Assembly: GCF_000026545.1 (NCBI RefSeq)
Contig: NC_011601.1
Reading direction: 5' to 3' (one strand)
From: Escherichia coli O127:H6 str. E2348/69
GTDB taxonomy: Bacteria; Pseudomonadota; Gammaproteobacteria; Enterobacterales; Enterobacteriaceae
Length of the DNA stretch: 64,000 nucleotides
Positions 8,593 through 9,463 of this stretch are shown piece after piece. Below the pieces are notes generated by a model. That model did no database searches. It was given only the letters and a program-made list of their open reading frames with translations, and was not told the DNA's origin. The number at the start of each line of letters is the position of its first letter. Positions within the stretch are counted from its first letter, which is position 1. The position numbers and the translations under genes are program-made.

Positions 8593-9087
8593 CTATTTAA
8601 GACATTCCTGCAAATCAGCCAATGTTGCCATCAGTATCATAGAATCGACAGGCGATGGTTCAAACCCCACTCGCAGATAAAACTCACGGGCCTGGTCTGA
8701 TAACGCATGGACCAACATTCCGCGAATACCAATGACTTCAGCCGCCTGTAGTACTCGTAGACCGGCATCTCTGACCATCGCACGACCGATACCCTGACCC
8801 TGTAATGATTTATCTATTGCCAGACGACCAAGTACTACAACAGGGATCGGTTCTGGCATATTTCGGCGAAATCGTCCTGTCGCGACATACGTTTCAACGG
8901 CGCTGGAAGCAAGCGAATAATATGCCAAAACGTTGCTATACGTATCACAGCTAACAAATGTACGTGATGCGCCGGCAAGCTGATTTTTTAGGGCTCTCTG
9001 CTTTAGCCAGTTATCCATCGTTTCTACTCCCGAGCAAAAAGAGGTGAATTGATGCCTTGCCATGAGTGGCTCGGGGGCCTGAATCAT
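8593..9087 (-). CDS. GNAT-family acetyltransferase toxin of a type II toxin-antitoxin pair (TacT/AtaT/ItaT-like)
   Basis: 164 aa from the ATG that overlaps the antitoxin stop as ATGA; acetyl-CoA motif QGQGIGRAM inside [25 protein letters not shown]; alternative start at 9102. Confidence 0.8.
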
Positions 9088-9377
9088 TTTTTTTGCTCCC
9101 ACGGCGCGGGTGTTTGCATGGTTTTGCGTAATGCAGCATTGGGCGCGGGGGGCTGATCCAGACGATTCAAAAATAGCTGGTAATCATCAGAATCGATCCT
9201 GAAAATTCTCTGCTCAATGAGCGCCTCTTCAGCTGCGGCTCTGGCGGCCTCAAGGACAAATTCGGTGCGATTTTTTCCTCGGGCTTTAGCGGCCCGGTCA
9301 ATAAGATCGCGTTCTGCGGGTTTTATGCGCAAGTTTAAAGATTCGCGCCTGGCTGGAATGTTATTGGCTGCTGGCAT
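9084..9377 (-). CDS. RHH (DUF1778-type) antitoxin partnered with the GNAT toxin
   Basis: 97 aa from [51 protein letters not shown]; AAGGA SD 5 nt upstream; ORF track gives a longer frame starting at 9422. Confidence 0.8.
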
Positions 9378-9408
9378 AAATATATCCTTCGGCTTTGCGT
9401 GGATGATA

Positions 9409-9438
9409 ATTATACAGCACATGTAACGCTAATGTCAT
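9409..9438 (-). promoter_or_regulatory. candidate sigma70 promoter of the toxin-antitoxin operon
   Basis: On the minus strand: -35 ATGACA (9433-9438), 18-nt spacer, -10 TATAAT (9409-9414); overlapping inverted repeats (tgtaa...ttaca) could be an autoregulatory operator. Confidence 0.45.
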
Positions 9439-9463
9439 TACAGCAAAGATGCTACCCCTGAAA

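Follow-up and report, generated by a model that had tools for sequence, protein, structure and literature searches.

What is the roughly 0.88-kb segment of DNA that separates flgL from rne on the chromosome of Escherichia coli O127:H6 str. E2348/69, and is it likely to be functional? The segment lies within a stretch of 64,000 nucleotides of contig NC_011601.1 (the window), and a reading of the letters of that window (the original prediction) had taken it for a toxin-antitoxin (TA) module, composed of a GNAT acetyltransferase toxin and a ribbon-helix-helix (RHH) antitoxin of the DUF1778 type and inserted between the flgL and rne terminators. The family call is upheld by Pfam and PDB matches, and from sequence comparison we put a probability of about 75% on the segment being a functional chromosomal type II TA cassette of the GNAT/RHH (TacAT) family, closest to Salmonella TacAT2. 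The toxin and antitoxin open reading frames (ORFs) are not chance occurrences, since the antitoxin matches Pfam PF08681 at 1.5e-26, the toxin carries GNAT domains, and the best PDB matches reach 7.7e-76 for the toxin and 1.4e-45 for the antitoxin. The cassette and its surroundings comprise the following features, given in window coordinates.

8578-9458, no strand: cassette DNA specific to this allele, delimited by alignment with K-12 MG1655, where a 68-bp filler stands.
8593-9087, minus strand: toxin gene, encoding a TacT2-like GNAT acetyltransferase of 164 amino acids (ORF, Pfam, PDB and RefSeq).
9084-9377, minus strand: antitoxin gene, encoding an RHH/DUF1778 protein of 97 amino acids (ORF, Pfam, PDB and RefSeq).
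9385-9389, minus strand: Shine-Dalgarno sequence AAGGA, read from the sequence, 7 nt 5′ of the antitoxin ATG.
9409-9438, minus strand: predicted sigma-70-type promoter, with -35 ATGACA at 9438-9433, an 18-nt spacer and -10 TATAAT at 9414-9409.
9422-9442, minus strand: putative operator, the 21-nt pseudo-palindrome TGTAATGACATTAGCGTTACA, which includes the -35 hexamer (family-wide comparison).
8498-8575, plus strand: flgL 3′ end and the intrinsic terminator behind it (stem 8540-8568), a region listed in the K-12 annotation as the small RNA (sRNA) FlgO.
9469-9492, minus strand: rne intrinsic terminator, common to K-12; it lies on the strand of the TA operon, and 26 nt separate its end from the operator downstream.
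7545-8498, plus strand: flgL, one flank of the cassette.
9511-12696, minus strand: rne, the other flank, with its 3′ end at 9511.

By computed borders the insert spans 8578-9463 (886 nt), the last five nucleotides of which (TGAAA, 9459-9463) are common to both alleles of the site. The two genes form an operon, antitoxin first and toxin second on one strand, and are translationally coupled: the antitoxin stop and the toxin start share the sequence ATGA at 9087-9084 (TCAT on the plus strand, 9084-9087). A mechanical ORF list also holds longer versions of 112 amino acids for the antitoxin and 169 amino acids for the toxin. The 112-amino-acid ORF would start at 9422, upstream of the -10 hexamer, and we favour the 97-amino-acid start because the Shine-Dalgarno sequence is placed 7 nt before its ATG. 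RefSeq annotates the same two coding sequences in their 97- and 164-amino-acid versions. Rfam yielded nothing in the region, with three matches falling far below their gathering scores. On the evidence of its sequence, the cassette is a self-contained unit of about 0.88 kb, with a predicted promoter, an operator-like palindrome and the antitoxin and toxin genes. Much of this had been anticipated. The original prediction described a 164-amino-acid ORF with the motif QGQGIGRAM and a 97-amino-acid ORF, both recovered here with the same coordinates, and their ATGA overlap can be read directly from the letters. Its ATGACA/TATAAT promoter is present at 9438-9409, the inverted repeats over it are found at 9442-9422, and the terminators that it named (8540-8568 on the plus strand, 9492-9469 on the minus strand) do flank the module. 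The location between terminators thus holds, while the polarity implied by the word 'inserted' is not settled by the data.

The toxin (WP_000613626.1, named 'GNAT family N-acetyltransferase' in RefSeq) is a single-domain GNAT protein that matches three Pfam families of this fold, Acetyltransf_7, Acetyltransf_10 and Acetyltransf_1, and its acetyl-CoA loop is intact (Q96-G97-Q98-G99-I100-G101-R102). Its best PDB match is chain A of 7AK7 (73.9% identity), followed by the TacT entries 5FVJ, 7AK8 and 7F36 at about 1e-44 and by KacT, AtaT and 6G96 at 1e-15 to 1e-20. Alignment with TacT2 shows that F17, the basic surface residues K29 and R88, on which tRNA binding and toxicity of TacT2 depend, and Y137 are kept, the catalytic Tyr137 standing opposite Phe137 of the TacT2(Y137F) protein in 7AK7. 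In TacT2, toxicity is abolished by Y137F and by R88G; K29 is found in the potent S. Enteritidis variant and E29 in the weak S. Typhimurium variant, which is non-toxic on overexpression, and the single change E29K strongly alters toxicity (PMC5959882). The S. Enteritidis form of TacAT2 is also the one for which growth arrest by the toxin and neutralisation by the cognate antitoxin have been demonstrated (PMC5959882). Judged by alignment, every residue known to be needed for TacT2 activity is kept in the E. coli toxin.

The antitoxin (WP_001110446.1, 'type II toxin-antitoxin system TacA family antitoxin' or 'DUF1778 domain-containing protein' in RefSeq) matches PF08681 (TacA1/DUF1778) over residues 14-88. 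A weak RHH_1 match at residues 17-50 marks an N-terminal ribbon-helix-helix, followed by a C-terminal toxin-binding region. Chain C of 7AK7 is the best PDB match (81.4% identity), and the TacA, KacA and AtaR chains are matched as well. Antitoxins with PF08681 define a monophyletic 'true TA clade' of GNATs (PMC9177977). The PF08681 and GNAT profile searches that the original prediction had proposed as checks were therefore both positive. Against its counterpart in the unclassified Escherichia sp. E4385, the toxin gene shows a ratio of nonsynonymous to synonymous substitution rates (dN/dS) of 0.12 and the antitoxin gene one of 0.08, values from which purifying selection on both genes is deduced; taken with the identity of at least 99% seen in 683 genomes, the low dN/dS is, at the level of sequence, the signature of a maintained, functional pair. 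A run of eight A residues on the coding strand (9088-9095) lies just 5′ of the toxin ATG, and two antitoxin-toxin fusions of 260 amino acids found in Logan assemblies (P0001 and P0004) are consistent with a one-base slip in this run, whether a sequencing error or a real frameshift.

The nearest known system is TacA2-TacT2 of Salmonella, the complex in 7AK7. Beyond the identities given above, the two systems share their operon anatomy, their protein lengths (97 and 163-164 amino acids), a homologous promoter/operator block (GTAATGACAT..GCGTTAC..TGTATA), the residues Y137, K29, R88 and F17, and the same predicted target, Gly-tRNAGly. We identify 7AK7 as TacAT2 on three counts: chain C is identical to the antitoxin encoded beside the Salmonella toxin P0062, chain A matches the TacT2 sequence in Table S4 of PMC9177977, and Phe137 corresponds to the Y137F mutant of PMC5959882. 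An assignment of this entry to TacAT3 was rejected, as 6G96 is TacT3(Y143F) according to PMC5959882 and 7AK7 fits TacT2 and Y137F. The chromosomal setting of the two systems differs, the Salmonella and Leclercia copies lying near dsbD, cutA and PAP2 genes and the Escherichia copies between flgL and rne, and homology with Salmonella tacAT2 extends from a point shortly 5′ of the operator to the toxin stop codon and no further. Because the site differs and homology ends at the cassette edges, we regard the E. coli pair as a separately acquired relative; a positional orthologue of Salmonella tacAT2 was considered and rejected on the neighbourhoods (dsbD/cutA versus flgL-rne).

Other characterised members are more distant. 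Salmonella TacA-TacT (TacAT1; 5FVJ, 7AK8, 7F36/7F37) belongs to the same family and Gly-specific clade, with a toxin 49% identical to the one studied here (E 1e-44) and an antitoxin matching at E 4e-15, and its autoregulation through its own promoter has been shown (PMC5449658). The E. coli systems AtaT-AtaR, AtaT2 (O157:H7) and ItaT-ItaR (HS) have in common with the cassette their family, host species and chemistry, the N-acetylation of aminoacyl-tRNAs (aa-tRNAs). Their toxins are different proteins: AtaT matches only at E ~1e-16, and over the 110 residues compared the identity with AtaT2 is about 45%, so that AtaT, AtaT2 and ItaT were rejected as identifications. AtaT and ItaT represent the broad-specificity clades A and B (PMC9177977). 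KacA-KacT of Klebsiella (5ZGN, solved with operator DNA) offers a structural model for promoter repression, in which a hexamer of the form T-A2-A2-T sits on a pseudo-palindrome (PMC6698736); its toxin matches at only E 4e-20 and its antitoxin at only 2e-07, and its operator sequence differs. Among the DNA-contact residues R8, D10 and R12 of KacA, only the equivalent of R12 (R17 here) is kept, by our reading of the alignment offsets. The comparison with AtaT, ItaT and TacT that the original prediction had suggested thus bears out the family and places Salmonella TacAT2 (74% and 81% identity), rather than AtaT, AtaT2 or ItaT, closest to the E. coli pair.

Clade membership bears on the substrate. 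Seven clade D toxins, namely TacT, TacT2, TacT3, GmvT, AtaT2 and two others, acetylate almost exclusively Gly-tRNAGly in vivo, as determined by liquid chromatography and mass spectrometry, and ribosome profiling of TacT3 revealed pausing at Gly codons (PMC9177977). TacT2 and TacT are 46.8% identical (PMC5959882). Because the E. coli toxin resembles TacT2 (74%) more than the Gly-specific TacT2 and TacT resemble each other, we predict from clade placement, with moderate confidence, that its target is Gly-tRNAGly. The statement in the original prediction that specificity cannot be read from sequence is strictly true but too pessimistic, since clade D (PMC9177977) provides a usable prediction.

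The predicted promoter matches 11 of the 12 sigma-70 consensus positions. A scan of the region returned two promoter-like sites against 1.9 in shuffled sequences, which is no excess; what supports the promoter is thus where it stands and the fact that related loci keep it, and not the scan; the same arrangement is kept in the Salmonella, Leclercia and E4385 loci. The inverted repeat in E. coli is short (TGTAA-N11-TTACA, 9442-9422) and would be unremarkable alone. It gains weight from a survey in which the antitoxin gene was located in all collected related loci and the sequence upstream of it was read. A palindrome of 21 nt, with the family-wide consensus YGTAATGACA-N3-TGTCATTACR, was found 26-67 nt 5′ of the antitoxin start codon in 37 of 49 non-redundant related loci. 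Its arms are complementary at a mean of 7 of 9 positions, with perfect 9-bp arms in five loci; its TGACA forms the -35 hexamer, and 21 of the 37 loci have a TAnnnT hexamer 16-18 nt further on. Both sides of the outermost arm pair vary together, reading TGTAA/TTACA in Escherichia and CGTAA/TTACG in Salmonella and Leclercia. By this comparison the E. coli inverted repeat is a local, partly degenerate copy of the family-wide palindrome, and its position over the -35 hexamer is consistent with an autoregulatory operator. Related systems provide precedents: KacAT and AtaRT form T-A2-A2-T hexamers that bind a pseudo-palindrome, with conditional cooperativity also described for KacAT (PMC6698736), and TacAT binds two sites in its own promoter, between -81 and -6 (PMC5449658). 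The most distant relatives, from a metagenome-assembled genome of Legionellaceae and from Kluyvera sichuanensis (antitoxins 38-40% identical), are without the GTAATGAC palindrome and carry palindromes of the TGTATAC/GTATATAC type upstream of the antitoxin gene instead. Operator sequence appears, on these alignments, to co-vary with antitoxin subfamily.

How widespread is the cassette? Among 5,426 complete E. coli genomes it is present in 686 (12.6%, about one in eight), always as a single copy and always on the chromosome, and the K-12-type junction, counted where at least 80% of its length is covered, is found in 4,735 genomes; the two classes account for all but five genomes. Both genes are intact and at least 99% identical to the window in 683 genomes, and a diverged paralogue is detectable at the DNA level in only seven further genomes. 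All four carrier loci that we inspected (E2348/69, 042, HS-02 and Escherichia sp. E4385) have the cassette at the flgL-rne site, and the toxin proteins of E2348/69 and 042 are identical (WP_000613626.1). K-12, NRG 857C, an HS stock and an O157:H7 strain are among the genomes without it. In K-12, flgL and rne are adjacent, with 68 bp between the same two terminators and both TA genes absent; the original prediction had described this arrangement, and the genes are likewise absent from the K-12-type genomes of the survey. The 68-bp filler was considered as a remnant of the cassette and rejected as such, its local alignment score of 10 lying below the shuffle mean of 11.3, with 276 of 300 shuffles scoring equally well or better. 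The borders between the alleles show microhomologies of 5-6 bp only, TGAAA being the one on the rne side. The CTATTT that opens the K-12 filler also occurs at 8593-8598, in the region of the toxin stop codon.

Some individual records deserve comment. The flgL-side junction of HS-02 is without the 15 bp ATGAGACATAACGAA seen in E2348/69. Its locus (NZ_CP172818.1, ~1675-2240) reads as homopolymer-ridden nonsense over most of the cassette, and the toxin is annotated by PGAP as a partial pseudogene. Natural decay of the toxin gene was rejected as an explanation for this partial match, homopolymer-ridden junk across the cassette denoting an assembly or polishing artefact. Two PLSDB records filed as E. 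coli plasmids with 100% protein identity, CP088669.1 (730 kb) and NZ_CP141089.1 (4.9 Mb), are probably mislabelled chromosome.

How did the cassette come to this site? Escherichia sp. E4385 has the pair at the same flgL-rne position, at nucleotide identities of 93.7% and 95.6% compared with 86-92% for flgK, flgL and rne. Synonymous divergence (dS) from E4385 is 0.16-0.20 for the cassette, 0.34 for rne and 0.58 for flgL, an unusually high value. As it is shared in place with E4385, the cassette has long been resident at this Escherichia site and did not enter E2348/69 recently, contrary to the original prediction where that is read as describing a recent, one-off event. Within E. coli, E2348/69 and 042 differ at 3 of 789 coding positions of the cassette (99.6% identity), their flanks being 96.7-98.3% identical. 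The flgL differences between these two strains cluster at codon positions ~425-470, suggesting a recombination mosaic in the flanks. Homologous recombination through conserved flanks, carrying the allele from one lineage to another, is the simplest reading of these comparisons. Toxins of 79%-96% identity were not found in other genera. The scan of genome contigs relied on exact peptide patterns specific to this allele, and E. coli and Salmonella were not returned, the species representative being without the allele; it did bring up relatives at 50-71% identity in alpha-, beta- and gammaproteobacteria. Relatives at 60-80% identity occur on 87 plasmid records (Salmonella, Klebsiella, Zymomonas and Mesorhizobium), and others at 46-71% are scattered over alpha-, beta- and gammaproteobacteria, a distribution that fits a horizontally mobile cassette family. 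The cassette shows no sign of being a transposable or integrative element itself: recombinase, transposase, terminal repeats and target duplication are all absent, its 0.88 kb holding two genes only. The ORF list for 6500-13500 contains no tRNA or integrase, and base composition is without anomaly (48.5% GC in the cassette, 50.5% in the window).

If the pair behaves as its relatives do, the antitoxin would dimerise through its N-terminal ribbon-helix-helix, and its C-terminal part would wrap around the toxin and block the acetyl-CoA site. A hexamer of the order toxin-antitoxin2-antitoxin2-toxin would repress the operon from the 21-nt palindrome over the -35 element. Toxin activity would bar the affected tRNA from peptide-bond formation, with the expectation that ribosomes stall at Gly codons and growth stops, damage that peptidyl-tRNA hydrolase may reverse. 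The cassette as a whole would be an accessory allele of the flgL-rne spacer, gained and lost by homologous recombination through the conserved flanks. Several points weigh against this account. We found no paper that names the locus or the protein accessions, a search that many subscription papers fell outside and that is no proof of absence. Neither protein matches an NCBIfam model at E <= 0.001, an uninformative result, since some other rule must underlie the RefSeq name of the antitoxin. In Escherichia and Salmonella the palindrome has a degenerate right inner arm, in which we count 6 of 10 complementary positions. Toxin residues differ from TacT2 at 26% of positions, so that potency or substrate could differ, and Tac toxins acetylated several aa-tRNAs in vitro (PMC5959882), which makes 'Gly only' dependent on the assay.

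Potency is at stake in the possibility that the cassette, though intact, is a selfish element that does nothing for the physiology of the cell, its toxin weak or active only when the cassette is lost, kept by addiction and hitch-hiking, and with no part in stress or persistence. We think this unlikely, although it would suit the restriction of the cassette to 12.6% of genomes and its absence from most lineages without obvious compensation, its lower divergence than the flanks in both identity and dS, as for a unit moving between lineages, the plasmid-borne state of close relatives in other genera, and the lack of toxicity of the S. Typhimurium TacT2 variant on overexpression (PMC5959882). The toxin has K29 of the potent S. 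Enteritidis variant, however, and not E29, and dN/dS values of about 0.1 indicate that both proteins are maintained; as addiction itself needs an active toxin, this alternative concerns the biological role and not the mechanism. It is much harder still to credit that the genes are not a TA pair at all and encode an unexceptional acetyltransferase, acting on small molecules or proteins, together with an RHH transcription factor of its own. The GNAT superfamily is very large and functionally diverse, the RefSeq name of the toxin is unspecific, and a specific NCBIfam model for the toxin is lacking, but the identities of 74% and 81% are with a pair whose toxicity and neutralisation have been shown and which was crystallised as a complex, and PF08681 antitoxins mark the true TA clade (PMC9177977).

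The toxin may alternatively have a different or broader main substrate. Like AtaT and ItaT, it might act on several hydrophobic aa-tRNAs, or it might modify lysines in proteins, such as the cognate antitoxin or a virulence protein. E2348/69 is one of the attaching-effacing pathogens, which lends the last variant some appeal. Tac toxins modified up to 13 amino-acid species in vitro (PMC5959882); TacT acetylates K44 of TacA (PMC5449658); and AtaT is reported to acetylate EspB in enterohaemorrhagic E. coli (PMC7957018). The divergence from TacT2 noted above points the same way. Such a substrate nevertheless seems improbable, as Gly-tRNAGly was almost the sole in vivo target of all seven clade D toxins assayed, in agreement with the TacT3 ribosome profiling (PMC9177977), and the toxin is 74% identical to one of those toxins and 49% identical to another. 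There is, finally, the idea of anti-phage abortive infection as the main role, whereby host transcription shut-off would deplete the antitoxin and free the toxin. A role of this kind has been proposed for many type II TA systems, and distant homologues of the GNAT toxin occur in phages and prophages, one of them annotated as a KacT-type toxin. We give this little credence, given that no PADLOC defence model matches either protein, that the neighbours are flgL and rne and not a defence island, and that we met no evidence for such a role in the family literature examined.

The setting of the operon raises one further question, that of its effect on the neighbouring transcript. The TA operon converges on the flgL terminator and FlgO, with the toxin stop codon at 8593 on the minus strand facing FlgO at 8498-8575 on the plus strand. 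In K-12, FlgO is a sigma-28-dependent sRNA from the 3′ untranslated region (UTR) of flgL. A scan found no minus-strand terminator with a U-tract for the TA operon; the flgL terminator hairpin also folds on the minus strand (-19.3 kcal/mol), without a U-tract after it. Antisense read-through into FlgO and flgL is conceivable because the operon converges there without a U-tract terminator of its own. That TA transcripts do read antisense through FlgO and the flgL 3′ UTR, coupling derepression of the operon to FlgO and flagellar regulation, strikes us as a long shot. If it were true, derepression of the TA operon under stress, or read-through from rne, would affect FlgO levels in 12.6% of E. coli.

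The cassette is an experimentally uncharacterised member of a thoroughly characterised family, its genes are already annotated in RefSeq, and its presence will not surprise a specialist. As a TacT2-like system it represents a fourth GNAT toxin lineage beside those studied in E. coli (AtaT, AtaT2 and ItaT), with pathogens such as enteropathogenic E. coli E2348/69 and enteroaggregative E. coli 042 among its carriers; otherwise it adds little beyond bookkeeping. Two by-products may be of use: the family-wide operator consensus, which contains the -35 element, and a clean two-allele site, with 686 cassette and 4,735 filler genomes, at which to follow the gain and loss of a TA system by recombination in its flanks.

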